Made by a program: the position numbers and the translations under genes. A DNA stretch of 64,000 nt, from the NCBI GenBank assembly GCA_963558395.1, contig CAUWGE010000004.1:3446-67445 (forward strand). Reading direction: 5' to 3'. The notes below the pieces were generated by a model that was given only the letters and a program-made list of their open reading frames with translations, was not told the origin of the DNA and searched no databases. Shown piece after piece: positions 40,662 through 44,833 of this stretch; position 1 is the first letter of the stretch; each line of letters opens with the position of its first letter. The stretch is from an uncultured Clostridia bacterium. GTDB taxonomy: Bacteria; Bacillota; Clostridia; TANB77; CAG-508.

Positions 40662-40785
40662 AGTGTGGGACGAAATGCATTGTTGTCGTTGTTGTTGTCC
40701 GGATTGTTGTTGTTACGATTAGCAACTGGATTATCGTTGTTATAGTTGCCTCCGCGCTTCACACGATTGCCACTGTTATTGGCTT
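40662..40785 (-). repeat. DGR template repeat (TR)
   Basis: AAC-rich on the coding strand; it translates to ANNSGNRVKRGGNYNNDNPVANRNNNNPDNNNDNNAFRPTL. About 48 adenines by hand count. Lies 50 nt downstream of the RT stop and is non-coding in context. Confidence 0.85.
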
Positions 40786-40834
40786 TTTGATTTATCCCCA
40801 ATATCTTTATAATGCATTATTTTTTATTTAATTT

Positions 40835-41873
40835 TTAAGTATCTTCCTTTACCATATCTTTATCTTCTGTATAAAACACTTTATCTGTTAAATTCTTTGT
40901 ATTTGCTATTTTTATATATCCTAAATGTCCACATAAATATTTTCTTGCTTCTTTACTTGTAATTTCTCCTATTCGTATTTTATACTTCAATTCTTTTACT
41001 TTTTTCTTTAGTTTTCTTTTTCCTTTATCTCTTAACTTTAATCGATATTCATTTATTTTATATCCACAAAAATTAACCCCTTGTTTGTTTTTTAATATTT
41101 GTGTCTTACTATTTAACTCCAGCCCCAAATTCCCTTCCAAAAATAATTCTATCTTTTGTAACACTTCTTTTGCTTCTTGTTTTGTTTTCAACAAAATAAG
41201 ACTATCATCCATATATCTAAAATAATATTTACAGTGTAATTTATGTTTAACATGTTGGTCTAGTTCGTTCAAATAAATATTTGCAAACATTTGCGAAGTA
41301 TAGTTACCAATAGGTAGTCCATTTTCTCTTGCATTTGAATAAATGATTTCTTTTAATAACCATAACAATTTTTTATCTACTATTTTCTTTTGTAAAATAC
41401 TAAATAATATGTCTTTATCAATGTTTTCAAAATACTTTCTTACGTCCATCTTTAAAATATAGTATTCTTTCCATATTCTTTTGCAATGTAGCATTGCTTT
41501 TTGCACATCTAAACATGCCTTGTGCATTCCTCTGTTTTTCAAGCAAGCATATGATGTTTCCACAAATCTTGGTACAAAATATGGAATCAAAAAATTATCT
41601 ACTACCCATCTATGTACAATTCTATCTATATATCTACTTTTTTCAATCTTTCTTACTTTTGGCTCTGATATATAAAATATTGTATATCCTCCGATGTTTA
41701 TATGTCATACTTTTTAATTGTTGATATATAAACATAATATATTCTTCTTGTTTTAAGTTAAATAAAATAACTTCTTTCCTATATCCTTTCCCTTTTCTGC
41801 TCAATGTATGTGCTTTCATTAGGCTGTCATAAGTTAATTTTTCATCAAATTTATTTCGTATTGTTTTTGGCAT
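40835..41873 (-). pseudogene. DGR reverse transcriptase, reading frame broken by one extra base at about 41690..41694
   Basis: ORF 41643..41873 (MPKTIRNKF...SMTYKH) continues in the +1 frame as GGYTIFYISEPKVRKIEKSRYIDRIVHRWVVDNFLIPYF..., joining ORF 40835..41590. DGR-RT signature LPIGNYTSQ and catalytic YMDD are present. Confidence 0.85.
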
Positions 41874-42225
41874 AATATTTTAGCAGTCCTCCTATGATTT
41901 TTCCTATTTCGTATATTTTGTCTATTGCTATATTAAACTTCTTTTCATCTATCCAATGATTATTTTTCATAATTCTTAAATATATTCTCTGGCAATTTAA
42001 TATCGCATCTATCTTGTTTAAGTAATACATTCTTTTACTTTTTTCAATTTTATTTAAATATAATATATTTTGTATCATTTCATACATTGAGCTTTTATAT
42101 TCTGTTCCAATACTATACTTTTCTGTTCGTGGTATTTTTATTAACAAATTTAATATATATTCTGTATATTTTTCAACTTTGGGTATCAATATGAGTTCAC
42201 TATTTTTATATTCTTTTTCATTCAT
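41851..42225 (-). CDS. avd: DGR accessory variability determinant (Avd, four-helix-bundle family)
   Basis: 124 aa, helical. IPRTEKYSIGTEYKSSMYEMIQNIL... resembles Avd / 23S-rRNA-IVS-protein-family proteins. Overlaps neighbours on both sides (4 nt and 23 nt). Confidence 0.75.
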   Translation of the reverse strand: MNEKEYKNSELILIPKVEKYTEYILNLLIKIPRTEKYSIGTEYKSSMYEMIQNILYLNKIEKSKRMYYLNKIDAILNCQRIYLRIMKNNHWIDEKKFNIAIDKIYEIGKIIGGLLKYYAKNNTK

Positions 42226-42692
42226 AATCTTTTGTCCTCTATATCAATAATATTTATGTTTTCCATTTTCTTCAGTCTCTCCACTGCTTCGTCTATCATT
42301 TCTTTACCACTTTGTATTTTTCTATCTTGATACCAGCAATTATTACAGTTTAAATATTTTCTATACTCTTCTATTGGACATAATACTATTCTTGTAAGTA
42401 ATTCATATTTTTGATTGATATCTCCATTAATTCCTTCTGGATAATAATCATATATTGCAACTGATATTTTCTTTTCCGTTGCTGATTTAATAAATCTATC
42501 TATATTCTTTACTGAAACTGCACATTTACATATTTTTTCTTTTATGCAAATTGGATTAATTCCAAATTCCTCTGCTAATATAACACCATCTTTTCCTATA
42601 CCATCAAAAAATATCCCACATCTCACTAATACCAGGTATCCTTCGTTTTCTGGTAAGTTTTGTATTTCCTTTACAATATCTAAAAATTTCAT
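42222..42692 (-). CDS. MutS domain-I-like (mismatch-binding-domain-like) small protein, first gene of the DGR operon
   Basis: YLVLVRCGIFFDGIGKDGVILAEEFGINPI...CAVSVKNIDRFIKSATEKKISVAIYD...ELLTRIVLCP parallels E. coli MutS LLFYRMGDFYELFYDDA..LDISLT...[28 protein letters not shown]...VVRIVTPG. Confidence 0.55.
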   Translation of the reverse strand: MKFLDIVKEIQNLPENEGYLVLVRCGIFFDGIGKDGVILAEEFGINPICIKEKICKCAVSVKNIDRFIKSATEKKISVAIYDYYPEGINGDINQKYELLTRIVLCPIEEYRKYLNCNNCWYQDRKIQSGKEMIDEAVERLKKMENINIIDIEDKRL

Positions 42693-42739
42693 TTCATATA
42701 CCTCCTTTTTGATAACATTTTCCTTGCAAAATTTTGCAA

Positions 42740-43495
42740 ATCATAACCACCCGTAAAACGGGTGGTTTGCTCTTAGCCTAGAAGGCTTTTGTACTGGCAC
42801 TTCTGGGCTTAAGCCCTACTGAATGGTCTGTCAACCGCATTTCTTTCTCAGGCTACCACTTAAGTGGTCCTATCCCTTTTTTTATCTTTCTTTCTTTTTC
42901 CTTTTCTTCTTTCTCAAATGGGTCAACATATTCCTTGATACTTATTTGATCTGTTGCTATATCTTCTTGTAGTTGTTTTCTTATATATTCTTCTATCGCT
43001 TTTTTATTTTTGCCTACTGTATCCACATAATAGCCTGTACACCAAAAGTGCCTATTTCCATATCTGTACTTTAAGTTGGCATGTCTATCGAATATCATCA
43101 GGCTACTTTTTCCTTTTATATATCCCATTACACTTGATACACTATATTTCGGTGGAATACTTACTAGCATATGTATATGGTCTGGACATAATTCTGCTTC
43201 TATTATTTCTATTCCTTTCTGCTCACATAATCTCCTTATTATTACTCCTATATCTTTTCTTATTTTTCCGTATATTTCCATCCTTCTATATTTTGGTGCA
43301 AATACTATATGATATTTGCAATTCCAAGCACTGTGTGCTAAACTATTTTTGTCTATTTTCATAGATAAATCTCCTCCTTTGATTTTTATTTTTGCGGTTG
43401 ACCAAACCAAAAATATTATATCAAAGGAGGAGATTTATTTCACTCATAGCTAGAAGCTTTTAGAACCCCACGTAAAACGTGGGGTTTTCTTTATC
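42740..43495 (-). mobile_element. IS200-type (IS200/IS605 family, tnpA only) insertion sequence
   Basis: Y1 transposase flanked by subterminal hairpins with the same loop: CCACCCGTAAAACGGGTGG (42748..42766) and CCCCACGTAAAACGTGGGG (43468..43486). Small palindromes AGCCTAGAAGGCT and AGCTAGAAGCT lie next to them. Confidence 0.75.
42853..43362 (-). CDS. tnpA: IS200/IS605-family Y1 (HUH) transposase TnpA
   Basis: YHIVFAPKYRR and PDHIHMLVSIPP (HUH) motifs, and the catalytic Tyr region WCTGYYVDTVG. Start at ATG 43362, after the SD AGGAGGAG. Confidence 0.85.
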   Translation of the reverse strand: MKIDKNSLAHSAWNCKYHIVFAPKYRRMEIYGKIRKDIGVIIRRLCEQKGIEIIEAELCPDHIHMLVSIPPKYSVSSVMGYIKGKSSLMIFDRHANLKYRYGNRHFWCTGYYVDTVGKNKKAIEEYIRKQLQEDIATDQISIKEYVDPFEKEEKEKERKIKKGIGPLKW

Positions 43496-43560
43496 CAAAA
43501 AAATGTATACCACACAAGTGTCGCGTTTGAACTAGCTTATACTCTAGTTCAAACGCGCCT

Positions 43561-44377
43561 TGTTTTGTAGGAACCAAAACAGTTCCTACAAAACATCTAT
43601 TCTTCTAATGTACATACTACATCAAATATTCTATTTTTTGATGTACACTTTTCTCTTTATCAGGGCTCAGATCTACTTTATATAAAGTGTGGGACGAAAT
43701 GCACCGGAGTCGTTGCCGTTGTCCGGAGAGAGGACGTTACGATAAGAAACTGGATAACCGCGGTAATAGTAGCCTCCGCGCTCCACACGATCGCCACTGT
43801 TATTGGCTTCCATTGTCCATTCCCAACAGTTTCCTGCTAGGTCATAGATGTTTTTTGATACATCTTTTTCGACTGCTCCTGTTAATTCTGGTTTATCTTT
43901 TCTTGGTGTGGTTCTCTGGCTATCTCCTATATACCTACACATTGCATCCCATTGACTTCCATAGCATAATGTACTTGTTACACTTGTATATTTCTCTTGA
44001 ACTGCAAAATTCTTTGCTAAATACACTGCTCCACTTTTCCCTTCTATTTCACTTGCATCATTCATTGCTTTTCCCCATGGTACATAATTATATGGTGCTA
44101 CTCCTCTTTTTACTACTACTTTTTGTGCTGGTGTAACTTTTGTTCTTGGAGTGGTACTATCTACTCCTGCTTCAAAACGTCCTATATAAAATCCTCCATA
44201 TTTTAATACCTGTGTTTTCATGGTATCATATTCTTCAGCCTCTTTTGGATATCCGTTAGCATATGGTTCTGTATAATCTACTGATAAGCCAGTCGTTGGC
44301 TTTCCTGTACTTGTGTTAAACGCTGTTCTTTTTAAATCTGCTTCACTTGCAACTGGTATCCACACAAATTGATTTCC
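43561..44377. repeat. 817-bp direct repeat, copy 2
   Basis: See copy 1 (27684..28500). Upstream of 44377/28500 the two genes remain homologous but diverged and have indels. Confidence 0.85.
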
Positions 44378-44833
44378 TTTTAGATTTCCTGCTTGCTCAT
44401 ATGATGTTCCTTTATTTTCATCTTCTGCTTTATCTGATATAACAATTCCTGTATCGATATTTCCTCCTACATAATAAAATCCTTTGGGTAATGGTACTGG
44501 GTTTCCTTTTCCATCATCTATGACGTCTACTTTATCCTTATCCCATCTATCTGGCATTTCTGGTCCTTCTGGCTTTACTGGATTATTTTCTCCTAATCCA
44601 TCTATAAAATTTTCTGCCTTCCCCATTTCTAATTCTTCATTTTTCTCTGCATTTTTCCATGTATCTGTTGCGTTTTGTGCTCTTTTAAATATTCCGTTAT
44701 TCCCTATACTTAAACTAATAGCTACCCCTGCTAGTATTAATAATACTATTATTGTAACGACTAACGCTATTAGTGTTATTCCGCTTGCTGCTGTCATTTT
44801 GTTTGTTATTCTAGTTTTACTTTTTCTTTCCAT
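43673..44833 (-). CDS. DGR variable protein 2 (cis target): pilin-like N-terminus plus FGE-sulfatase/C-type-lectin-like domain carrying VR2
   Basis: Leader MERKSKTRITNKMTAASG, then ITLIALVVTIIVLLILAGVAISL. The C-terminal ~250 aa are identical to target 1. An SD GGAGAGG lies upstream. Confidence 0.85.
   Translation of the reverse strand: MERKSKTRITNKMTAASGITLIALVVTIIVLLILAGVAISLSIGNNGIFKRAQNATDTWKNAEKNEELEMGKAENFIDGLGENNPVKPEGPEMPDRWDKDKVDVIDDGKGNPVPLPKGFYYVGGNIDTGIVISDKAEDENKGTSYEQAGNLKGNQFVWIPVASEADLKRTAFNTSTGKPTTGLSVDYTEPYANGYPKEAEEYDTMKTQVLKYGGFYIGRFEAGVDSTTPRTKVTPAQKVVVKRGVAPYNYVPWGKAMNDASEIEGKSGAVYLAKNFAVQEKYTSVTSTLCYGSQWDAMCRYIGDSQRTTPRKDKPELTGAVEKDVSKNIYDLAGNCWEWTMEANNSGDRVERGGYYYRGYPVSYRNVLSPDNGNDSGAFRPTLYIK
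43686..43809 (-). repeat. DGR variable repeat VR2 (identical to VR1)
   Basis: Same sequence as 27809..27932, lying inside the 817-bp repeat. Confidence 0.85.

Follow-up and report, generated by a model that had tools for sequence, protein, structure and literature searches.

A diversity-generating retroelement with a frameshifted reverse transcriptase gene and a candidate SSB-fold component in a gut Clostridia bacterium

Can a diversity-generating retroelement (DGR) still diversify its targets when its reverse transcriptase (RT) gene is frameshifted in every conspecific assembly seen? The question is raised by a locus within the window analysed here, a stretch of 64,000 nucleotides from an uncultured Clostridia bacterium, in which a preliminary description had recognised a DGR. 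On the - strand the genes follow in the order described there, target 2, IS200 tnpA, a MutS_I ORF, bAvd, RT and template repeat (TR), and the element reaches past the end first given for it, to an RT-14 RNA and a small conserved gene. Order target-msl-avd-RT-TR and adenine-biased pairs of TR and variable region (VR) are common to 80 related cassettes. The computed TR/VR alignment and the affinity of the RT both bear out the DGR reading: this is a genuine DGR, a known kind of element, and very probably a chromosomal one of the MSL/Avd class in a low-GC gut Clostridia bacterium. To this are added the small gene, an SSB-fold accessory gene that is apparently undescribed, and the puzzle posed by the RT.

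The TR (40662..40785, - strand) contains 48 A in 124 nt and is rich in AAC codons. It aligns without gaps to VR1 (27809..27932) and VR2 (43686..43809), both on the - strand and identical to each other, with 22 mismatches, of which 21 fall at TR adenines (A>G 9, A>T 8, A>C 4; P-value = 3.1e-8, binomial test) and one is G>T. Coordinates and mismatch counts are those already reported, and the TR and VR peptides quoted with them are present as well. Both VRs bear the adenine-specific scar of the DGR process. The same bias holds among conspecific strains, where 189 of 199 mismatches pooled over 10 distinct VRs lie at TR adenines and VR2 differs between strains at 10-34 of 124 positions. The sole non-adenine mismatch reflects a recent T-to-G change in the TR. 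At position 63 (window 40723) the window, L083, L087 and L089 have G, whereas most strains and all VRs have T, and no VR has received the change. The invariant 3' block that had been called IMH-like was upheld only in part, as the A in its GCATTT is mutated in the VRs of two strains, while the last two adenines, positions 120 and 122 in CACACT, are constant and are the only TR adenines that never vary.

VR2 lies in the C-terminal region of target gene 2 (43673..44833, - strand, 386 aa), which is FGE-sulfatase/C-type-lectin-like, and the N-terminus of the protein carries a prepilin-like leader (G-ITLIAL, with Ala at +5). The target belongs to an unnamed family of more than 7000 proteins that has no Pfam match, although FGE-sulfatase and N_methyl were each matched by 6 of 25 relatives (best E-values 8.8e-8 and 4.2e-4, respectively), and the target profile weakly matched SUMF2 at the VR (E-value = 0.012). 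Target gene 1 (27796..28911, - strand, 371 aa) is a remote paralogue 91% identical to target 2, and its 1.6-kb segment (27659-29257) is not found in all strains, L084 and L090 being without it. The two genes share an exactly identical block of 817 bp (27684..28500 = 43561..44377), a gene-conversion tract; 5' of it their identity drops to about 90% and indels occur. The identity of VR1 and VR2 follows from their position inside this tract, whose shared end holds a terminator-like hairpin (43561..43595, - strand, after target 2). Both targets are co-directional with replication, as judged from GC skew and gene strand, which is the favoured orientation in an E. coli reconstitution (PMC12875486).

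The RT is encoded by two ORFs in different frames, one at 41873-41643 (76 aa) and a second running down to 40835. Residues 1-60 are read in the native frame (41693..41873, - strand) up to an extra C at 41693, which falls between His60 and Gly61; beyond it the native frame adds 16 wrong residues before a TGA at 41643. Residues 61-345 are read in the +1 frame (40835..41692, - strand; 41692-40838 by tblastn), which matches Pfam RVT_1 (E-value = 2.9e-20) and bears the IGNYTSQ and YMDD motifs pointed out previously. After repair of the frame, the RT finds its nearest match, along its entire length, in the 328-aa RT of PDB 8ub7 (E-value = 1.8e-36), which we take from its N-terminal sequence to be the Bordetella phage bRT. 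Group II intron RTs score far more poorly (5e-22) and retron RTs likewise, placing the protein nearest the DGR type.

The same extra C was found in L081-L090, L091, L092 and L093-L100, which are all the conspecific assemblies seen, and the truncated 76-aa product has exact matches on 138 contigs. A search of 5.8 billion protein clusters detected no intact allele, and the closest database RT of full length is only 78% identical; by contrast, the RT is intact in 77 of 80 relatives. The frameshift is real and fixed. An account in which the locus is no DGR, either because TR and VR are alike as ordinary repeats are or because the frameshift is an assembly error, retains a negligible probability: the adenine bias within the window and across strains refutes the former, and the latter is refuted by recurrence of the C in Illumina, polished long-read and independent assemblies from several projects. 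The earlier picture of an intact, working element was nevertheless too simple, because the DGR parts are present but the RT gene is frameshifted.

The accessory genes proposed previously were substantiated by profile matches. The avd gene (41851..42225, - strand, 124 aa) matches Pfam bAvd (E-value = 9.5e-19) and NCBIfam DivGenRetAVD (1.8e-18, although at 66.8 bits it stays under the 80-bit cutoff). The MutS-like gene msl (42222..42692, - strand, 156 aa) matches Pfam MutS_I above the gathering score (E-value = 2.2e-5; 25.1 bits, cutoff 20.6) and occupies the same position in most related cassettes. MSL is a class of DGR accessory already described (PMC5758913). In the spacer between target 2 and msl lies an IS200/IS605-family element (approximately 42741..43496, - strand, boundaries set by alignment to L081), whose tnpA (about 42853-43362) matches Pfam Y1_Tnp (5.6e-40) and NCBIfam IS200 (3.8e-45). 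It is absent from all conspecific contigs and is thus specific to the strain of the window.

Adjoining the 3' end of the TR is an RT-14 RNA (Rfam RF02921; 40539..40663, - strand) that scores 81.7 bits (gathering score 48.1). Within it are a stem-loop capped by UACG, the strand at 40588-40598 that forms the 3' side of a long-range helix, and a short stem-loop with an A-rich stretch behind it; of the hairpins in the Rfam model, the third is missing in the window. All of 16 relatives match RT-14, as does the window; in 15 of these related loci the motif begins no more than about 4 nt from the TR end, and in the sixteenth it begins about 9 nt beyond that end. The 5' strand of the helix (GGGGAUAAAUC, 40789..40799, - strand), identified by RNA folding, closes the TR. 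The helix has 11 bp, with 99% of cells paired across 17 loci and compensatory changes at 4 pairs, and none of 500 shuffles was as good. With this covariation support, the RT-14 'linker' pairs with the 5' flank of the TR, in the manner of the 'cPRT Stop' duplex of Bordetella avd:Sp (bioRxiv 10.1101/2023.10.23.563531).

After the TR and RT-14 follows the small gene (40168..40416, - strand), which encodes 82 aa with a predicted SSB (OB) fold and no C-terminal tail. The AlphaFold2 model is confident (pLDDT 91, pTM 0.79), and its top PDB matches by Foldseek are bacterial SSBs (TM 0.70-0.78). Pfam SSB was matched by 20 of 34 family members (best E-value 5.2e-7), the copy in the window itself reaching an E-value of only 0.19. 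Synteny and fold make the gene a candidate fifth component of the cassette, and no description of a DGR-linked SSB-fold gene was found among known DGR parts. The alternative that it is a passenger or neighbour with no role in retrohoming seems improbable. HMM matches place it beside RT and TR in 79 of 79 related loci with enough sequence, none of which has the neighbouring genes of the window; every cassette copy of multi-copy genomes has one, and two distant family members picked by rank only also follow RT, TR and RT-14. The family is moreover small and dedicated (279 representative clusters, almost all of 80-100 aa). A passenger would nevertheless agree with its place outside the transcribed TR-RT-14 unit as modelled, with its opposite orientation in 3 of the loci (same strand in the other 76) and with the lack of a copy beside two RT relatives on viral contigs (57% and 36% identity).

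Given the extra C, full-length RT could be obtained only by a +1 ribosomal shift or from a sister DGR. The former, at CAU-CGG-A, would be leaky, giving little RT and throttled mutagenesis. CGG is tied as the rarest sense codon (7 in 17,294 codons) and is followed by AGG, whereas the +1 codon GGA is heavily used (684); a shift exactly here gives back TYKH-GGYT, conserved in relatives, and near-clonal carriers of the frameshift differ only in their VRs. Against this, the P-site tRNA-His does not re-pair in the +1 frame, neither an upstream SD-like element nor a nearby 0-frame stop is present, and the site is found in one species only. As these classic stimulators, including a slippery P-site codon, are absent, efficient programmed recoding is not indicated, and we regard the shift as an unlikely source of RT. 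Supply in trans, by an RT of the same family that recognises the conserved RT-14-type RNA, is likewise doubtful. It would be favoured by the presence of 2-3 such cassettes in related MAGs, by the high conservation of RT-14 sequence and structure across the family, and by a further cassette that has a TR and RT-14 of its own and occurs in samples also containing this species (L104 and L098 both come from ERZ926630, and L100 is a chimeric contig). That co-occurrence is, however, known at the level of samples rather than of the same genome, and the 64-kb window holds only one RT.

Comparison of strains bears on whether any RT activity persists. VRs differ massively between otherwise near-identical strains: between L084 and L086 there are no differences in 12,985 nt of flank or in the rest of the target, but 10 in the VR, of which 9 lie at TR adenines, and L087 and L088 have 4 in 8,477 nt of flank, none in the rest of the target and 28 in the VR. 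Such near-clonal carriers of the frameshift, differing in the VR, imply either that diversification continues or that recombination shuffles old VRs. The chances of continued low-level diversification in this lineage appear about even. Close to even chances are also given to a dead relic, in which the insertion abolished the RT already in the common ancestor of the strains sampled and the older VR diversity has since only been moved around, by homologous recombination from strain to strain and by gene conversion from one target paralogue to the other. Such a relic would account for the fixed frameshift, the TR change never transferred to a VR, the 817-bp conversion, the IS200 insertion in the spacer and the lost RT-14 hairpin. 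The strains diverge from one another in a mosaic of recombination patches, and identical VRs are found on several backbones as well as in both paralogues, so old alleles could be shuffled without RT activity. The four carriers of the TR G have three different VRs, none with the G, and these look like products of recombination rather than homing, because adjacent non-VR sequence changed as well; the strain of the window gives no sign of homing since the TR change and the conversion. On the other side, at least 12 distinct VRs lie on a cassette 99.7-100% identical over 2,240 nt, for which a relic would need many recombination breakpoints within the 1,993 nt between VR and frameshift. L084 and L086 differ in the VR only across 14 kb, L084 lacks the second target at its known locus, and downstream of the shift every strain keeps an open RT frame with all its motifs. 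Three VR pairs have a common 5' part and a differing 3' part, the polarity expected of homing; the L084/L086 differences fit 3'-anchored homing only imperfectly, since they lie internally, at positions 73-99, and two substitutions further 3' are common to both VRs.

If the element works, the Bordetella paradigm suggests the following course. The msl-avd-RT-TR region would be transcribed, with the RT-14 RNA just 3' of the TR forming a stem-loop of the Avd-binding type and its long-range duplex with the TR 5' flank bracketing the template. Full-length RT, made by the +1 shift at CAU-CGG or provided by a sister DGR, would act with Avd, self-prime and copy the TR into cDNA, misincorporating opposite adenines, and the cDNA would replace the VR at the 3' end of the gene for a pilin-like, lectin-fold surface protein. 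The SSB-fold protein may act on single-stranded cDNA or else on the target strand exposed at integration.

The DGR of Bordetella phage BPP-1 (mtd-avd-TR-brt) shares with this element adenine-specific transfer from TR to VR, Avd together with an RT bearing [I/L]GxxxSQ, a structured RNA that follows immediately on the 3' side of the TR and includes a tetraloop-capped stem-loop, an 11-bp duplex between TR upstream flank and downstream RNA (cPRT Stop), and a VR at the C-terminus of a lectin-fold ligand-binding protein. The Clostridia element differs in being chromosomal rather than phage-borne, in having RT before TR instead of TR before RT, in its additional msl and SSB-fold genes, in its target, a pilin-like cell protein, in the presence of two such targets, in its frameshifted RT gene and in its RNA motif, which is RT-14 and not RT-10. 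Frameshifting to +1 at 'hungry' codons occurs at yeast Ty3 GCG-AGU-U, at tandem rare AGG codons in E. coli and in prfB. The RT site resembles these in its rare A-site codon with AGG behind it and its abundant +1 codon, yet has no slippery P-site codon, SD-like stimulator or stop codon; not being conserved beyond one species, it is at best a leaky mutation and not an evolved recoding signal.

The combination of a small MutS-domain-I-like gene with avd and no HRDC is that of the architecture D (MSL-containing) DGRs, to which the Legionella DGR belongs, in Wu et al. (2018; PMC5758913). That survey lists avd, HRDC, MSL, CH1 and the tenuous PAG1-4 as accessories, and its main text has no mention of an SSB/OB-fold gene. 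The present cassette has, in addition to msl, the SSB-fold gene, which is universal in this lineage. In predicted fold and in Pfam SSB matches of its family this gene product is like the bacterial homotetrameric SSBs (B. subtilis SsbA/SsbB, E. coli SSB), but at about 82 aa it is devoid of the disordered linker and acidic C-terminal tip, it is encoded in a DGR cassette, and its family stays separate, not being merged with canonical SSBs by profile. For RT-14, the window and all tested relatives score above the Rfam threshold. Weinberg et al. (2017; PMC5737381) tied only RT-10 to a DGR and left the other RT motifs unassigned; here RT-14 always adjoins a TR, and its conserved 'unpaired' linker provides the 3' strand for a helix, supported by covariation, whose 5' strand lies in the TR 5' flank. 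Finally, the DGRs acting on Type V pilus tip adhesins of Bacteroides (bioRxiv 10.1101/2024.11.15.621889) also belong to gut commensals and have a pilus-associated, adhesin-like target, whereas the present host is of a Gram-positive lineage and its target has a leader of the type IV kind (prepilin, N_methyl) with Ala in place of Glu at +5; the Clostridia DGR target, too, may be displayed on a pilus.

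The preliminary description proposed a diversity-generating retroelement (DGR) from an ungapped alignment of a template repeat (TR) with two variable regions (VRs), and this alignment was reproduced on the minus strand between TR (40662-40785) and both VR1 (27809-27932) and VR2 (43686-43809). The computed comparison gave the same 22 mismatches that had been counted by hand, 21 of them at TR adenines (A>G 9, A>T 8, A>C 4) and the remaining one G>T. With 48 adenines in the 124-nt TR, the chance probability of 21/22 is 3.1e-8. No fourth copy of the repeat was found within the window. 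In both targets the VR ends 13 nt before the stop codon, TR starts 50 nt past the RT stop, and the TR and VR sequences part ways directly after CACACT. Hairpins lie ~40 and ~90 nt downstream of VR (fold z-score -5.1), with no GC-rich stem at the Bordetella spacing.

The gene order that had been proposed also held: target 2 (43673-44833), an IS200 transposase, a MutS_I ORF (42222-42692), bAvd (41851-42225) and an RVT_1 protein carrying both LPIGNYTSQ and YMDD. After frame repair, the RT matched the 328-aa RT of PDB 8ub7, which we take from its N-terminal sequence to be the Bordetella phage RT, over its full length (E = 1.8e-36), and matched the group II intron RT GsI-IIC (5e-22) and a retron RT (1e-4) more weakly; these scores support placing it with the DGR clade. 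Avd (41851-42225, minus strand) was recognized by Pfam bAvd (9.5e-19; 68.3 bits vs. a cutoff of 40), while NCBIfam DivGenRetAVD gave 66.8 bits, under its 80-bit cutoff. The MutS-like gene, msl (42222-42692, minus strand; Pfam MutS_I E = 2.2e-5, 25.1 bits vs. a gathering score of 20.6), is syntenic among relatives and encodes a small MutS domain I protein in an avd-containing DGR, as in the MSL accessory class assigned to Architecture D by Wu et al. (2018; PMC5758913). The DGR reading is therefore upheld by both the adenine bias and the search scores of the RT, and the element is a genuine DGR of an established class. DGRs are familiar and numerous in gut bacteria, and the preliminary description alone would make this an ordinary one. 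What rises above the ordinary is a species-wide RT frameshift accompanied by strain differences confined to VR, a function for the RNA motif RT-14 and, above all, a universal gene with an SSB fold.

The RT gene consists of two ORFs in different frames, with no intact RT frame. An extra C at 41693 lies between His60 and Gly61, so that the window reads ACA TAT AAA CAT C GGA GGA TAT where relatives read ACA TAT AAA CAT GGA GGA TAT; a single full-length RT match was obtained in 77 of the best 80 of 318 relatives. Sequencing or assembly error was rejected as the cause, because the same C recurs across independent assemblies: it is found in ten conspecific contigs from independent metagenomes (2,240-nt cassettes 99.7-100% identical), in both JGI contigs matching a pattern that accepts either allele, and in every additional conspecific contig examined, and the 76-aa product that exists only through the frameshift was found exactly on 138 contigs. 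A compensating second indel was rejected as well, since the two frames remain different up to the stop. No intact RT allele of the species was detected among 5.8 billion clusters, in which the best full-length RT was 78% identical, and no second RT was found within the 64-kb window.

Other irregularities of RT genes were observed in the family. In two relatives (L070 and L079), the RT match ends at residue 276 of ~340, a possible 3' truncation or frameshift. A group II intron (RF02004 + RF00029; proteins P0126, P0128 and P0129) interrupts the DGR RT gene in sense orientation at the YMDD codons. It was seen both in certain strains of this species (L091, ~4978-7587, minus strand) and in another DGR belonging to the family (L104, 733-3332, plus strand), which suggests that the active-site codons are an intron homing site. 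We rejected this intron as a sign of decay: because it is in sense orientation and the same intron type occurs in the second DGR, it is probably spliced out and neutral.

How an RT might still be made was considered in two ways. The candidate frameshift site is ACATATAAACATCGGAGGATATACA, and its A-site codon, CGG, is tied as the rarest sense codon in the window (7/17,294), the codon after it is AGG, and the +1-frame codon GGA is used 684 times. Hungry codons are known to promote +1 frameshifts, and by this analogy the codon usage favours occasional +1 decoding at CGG; such a shift would give a trans-frame peptide containing SMTYKHGGYTIFY. Though the hungry CGG is present, the features of a programmed +1 frameshift are lacking: the P-site codon is not slippery and its tRNA-His is unable to re-pair in the +1 frame, no SD-like element lies upstream and, in the 80 relatives compared, the site is not conserved outside the species. 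The site would thus be at most a leaky mutation. Alternatively, a sister DGR may supply RT in trans. Samples containing this species also yielded another cassette of the family that has a TR and an RT-14 of its own (L104 and L098, the latter from this species, are both from ERZ926630); this sister cassette might reside in the same genome. A further contig, L100 (~1700-2200), joins the msl-avd-RT 5' region of this species to the RT 3' end, TR, RT-14 and SSB gene of another DGR; it could be a chimera created by assembly or the outcome of genuine recombination between sister cassettes.

The VRs of this species are highly variable. Whereas 115 contigs carry the exact Avd, each of the exact target proteins occurs on just 2, and at least 12 different VRs occur among ~15 assemblies. 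In 10 distinct VRs pooled from conspecific strains, 189/199 differences from TR are at adenines, and 41/48 TR adenines are variable. Near-clonal strains differ in the target solely within VR. L084 and L086, from two samples of one study, are identical across 12,985 nt of flank and throughout the target outside VR, but have 10 differences in VR, 9 of them at TR adenines (in L084 the second target is absent at its known locus); L087 and L088 differ at 4 sites in 8,477 nt of flank, at none in the target outside VR and at 28 in VR. Three VR pairs are common in their 5' part and different in their 3' part, a polarity expected from 3'-anchored homing. These observations argue for continued low-level RT activity in the lineage, to which we give about one half of our confidence.

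The other half goes to a recently dead RT, with old VR alleles shuffled by recombination, for which several observations speak. The window, L083, L087 and L089 (the TR-G clade) have G at TR position 63, where the TRs of the other strains and every VR have T; this shows that no homing across this position has occurred since the TR mutated. The T>G change also accounts for the single non-adenine mismatch of the preliminary description: against the T allele, 21/21 mismatches of the window VR are at adenines. Within the TR-G clade, VR differences are always accompanied by adjacent changes outside VR and resemble tracts left by recombination or conversion. Between strains, zero-SNP blocks alternate with patches 4-8% divergent in a mosaic, and the same VR is found on different backbones and in either paralogue. 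Where L084 and L086 differ, the sites are internal to VR (positions 73-99), and two substitutions common to both strains lie 3' of them. Non-adenine TR/VR mismatches were rejected as an age marker, since relatives with intact RTs have similar numbers (1-5 per pair). With a frameshift in all its sampled RT alleles and VR-only differences between near-clonal strains, this species offers a natural test that could tell apart trace RT made by leaky recoding, shared RTs and recombined old alleles.

Both target genes share a stretch of 817 bp without a single difference (27684-28500 = 43561-44377), from mid-gene to just beyond the terminator hairpin, while their 5' regions are ~90% identical, with indels. 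Because independent homing would yield different VRs, the identity of VR1 and VR2 is a product of gene conversion, not homing. Target 1 is a presence/absence polymorphism among strains: L081 and L098 have the 1.6-kb segment 27659-29257, which adjoins tRNA-Trp (27505-27579), whereas L084 and L090 lack it, and in L096 and L097 the surroundings of a target-1-type gene are rearranged, so that it follows an ABC transporter. The targets belong to an unnamed family of >7,000 proteins with no Pfam domain. Its leader (44770-44833 in target 2) contains the invariant G-ITLIALVVTIIVLLILAG, with Ala at +5 in all 50 aligned homologues, where type IV pilins have Glu. Pfam N_methyl matched the window target weakly (E = 0.085) and 6/25 relatives (best 4.2e-4); Pfam FGE-sulfatase likewise matched it weakly (E = 0.042) and 6/25 relatives (best 8.8e-8). 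A target profile gave a weak SUMF2 match across VR (E = 0.012) and also matched pilin N-termini, a PDB sequence search with the single target protein returned no match, and an AlphaFold2 model from 50 close homologues was of low confidence (pLDDT 43.5). From these sequence matches, the target is likely a pilin-like anchor with a lectin-fold variable tip. Pilins lacking Glu5, such as GspK, cap pilus tips, and a GspK-like role, if present, would suit a variable adhesin. Pilin-type DGR targets are only sporadically mentioned in surveys. Upstream of target 2, a near-consensus promoter-like site was noted at 45128-45157 (minus strand; TTGACA, 18 nt, TG-TACAAT), in a scan whose overall number of sites was no higher than in shuffled sequence.

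Between the terminator region of target 2 and msl lies an IS200/IS605 element (~42741-43496; Pfam Y1_Tnp 5.6e-40) with a Y1 (HUH) transposase, hairpins near both ends and no inverted repeats reported. It is missing from every other strain compared, interrupts no gene and pushes target 2 ~0.76 kb from the cassette. The hairpin at 43522-43557 was rejected as an end of the element, since comparison with L081 shows it to be native sequence. Directly adjoining the insertion point is a 16-bp motif, CACTTGTGTGGTATAC, which is a tandem duplicate in L081 (9448-9479) and single in the window (43505-43520).

The surroundings of the cassette are chromosomal in character. Between the cassette and target 1 are infC, rpmI, rplT, rplM, rpsI and metabolic genes; transketolase and glycolysis genes are also among the neighbours. 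No megablast match was found among 50,697 phage records and only 2 RT relatives were found in IMG/VR, so a phage origin was rejected and the element is chromosomal. A segment of ~6.8 kb (~30035-36807), containing a class-V aminotransferase, DUF2797, a HIT protein, a radical-SAM C-terminal fragment and an IS30-like transposase (34912-36219, plus strand), is missing from L081, L084, L090 and L098, in which rpsI directly abuts the PNP gene. The window has a GC content of ~28%, its genes are almost all on the minus strand, and GC skew on the plus strand is uniformly negative. From skew and gene strand, we infer that both targets are co-directional with replication, an orientation that favoured retrohoming in an E. 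coli reconstitution (PMC12875486).

A scan of 185,579 species genomes yielded 318 loci with RT relatives, the best 80 of which are 65-77% identical and nearly all from MAGs of uncultured gut Clostridia. The order target(VR)-msl-avd-RT-TR is common to related loci, and mismatches in their TR/VR pairs show a strong bias to adenines (25/25, 22/22 and 21/21 in three of them). A few loci have two targets, and several genomes have two or three cassettes (single MAGs contain L013/L024, L017/L019, L025/L046/L061 and L007/L042).

Directly after RT-14, the window encodes an 82-aa ORF (40168-40416, minus strand) with syntenic homologues in relatives. An HMM of this protein found a copy beside RT/TR in 79/79 related loci of sufficient length; 76 of these copies share the strand of the cassette and 3 lie on the other, and in multi-copy genomes every cassette has its own copy. 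The other neighbours in the window are nearly absent from those loci (n = 81: DUF1292 0, orf156 0, infC 1, transketolase 1). The AlphaFold2 model is an OB barrel (pLDDT 91, pTM 0.79), whose top 20+ PDB matches are all bacterial SSBs (TM 0.70-0.78), and the protein is thus predicted to adopt an SSB-type OB fold. Pfam SSB recognized 20/34 family members (best 5.2e-7), the window's copy only at E = 0.19; as a family, it has no Pfam hit and no name. The acidic C-terminal tail of SSBs is missing, the protein ending ~10 residues past the last strand. The family is small and dedicated, with 279 representative clusters among 1.84 billion (E<=1e-3), almost all of 80-100 aa and without a tail. Two distant members, picked by rank alone, also follow RT-TR-RT-14. 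No paper tying an SSB/OB-fold gene to DGR cassettes was found among the openly accessible articles searched.

ExoI is an SSB-binding protein that is recruited through the SSB tail. Because it has no such tail, the SSB-fold protein would not recruit tail-binding partners such as ExoI. It may coat either the adenine-mutagenised cDNA or the lagging-strand copy of VR where this is exposed and, together with MSL, may form the lineage's own integration module, while RT is possibly held at a trickle by +1 frameshifting at the hungry CGG codon. Taken jointly, a previously undescribed dedicated DGR cofactor, an integration module shared with MSL and an RT trickle through a +1 shift at CGG form a model to which we give slightly less than an even chance. 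In the 2026 reconstitution, ExoI inhibited retrohoming, and its nuclease activity was not needed for this (PMC12875486). A lineage that always encodes a tail-less SSB and a MutS-domain protein would offer a natural, directly testable handle on the ExoI-inhibited step.

The RNA downstream of TR was identified as RT-14 (RF02921; 40539-40663, minus strand; Rfam 81.7 bits vs. a gathering score of 48.1), and the match starts on the final TR bases. RT-14 is found at the TR end in 16/16 relatives tested, within ~4 nt in 15 and ~9 nt after it in L014. Its third hairpin (model positions 103-144) is largely deleted in this species (40539-40580) and present in the 16 relatives, which score 67-129 bits. 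When this family of motifs was described, only RT-10 was tied to DGRs and the other RT motifs were left open (Weinberg et al., 2017; PMC5737381); the orphan motif RT-14 would now gain a function as a post-TR DGR RNA. In the folded window RNA, GGGGAUAAAUC, just 5' of TR, pairs with GAUUUAUUCCC, which Rfam annotates as an "unpaired linker". The resulting 11-bp helix is 99% paired over 17 loci, has four pairs with compensatory changes (one, A-U to G-C, specific to this species) and is better than all 500 shuffles and all slid registers. The conserved linker of RT-14 thus forms one side of the covarying helix closing TR, and the elements flanking TR, a 3' stem-loop and an upstream-downstream duplex, are of the DGR type. 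In the Bordetella RNP, the avd:Sp "cPRT Stop" duplex is followed by a short stem-loop and adenosines; the 11-bp helix corresponds to this duplex, and the UACG-capped stem after TR to the Avd-binding stem-loop (bioRxiv 10.1101/2023.10.23.563531).
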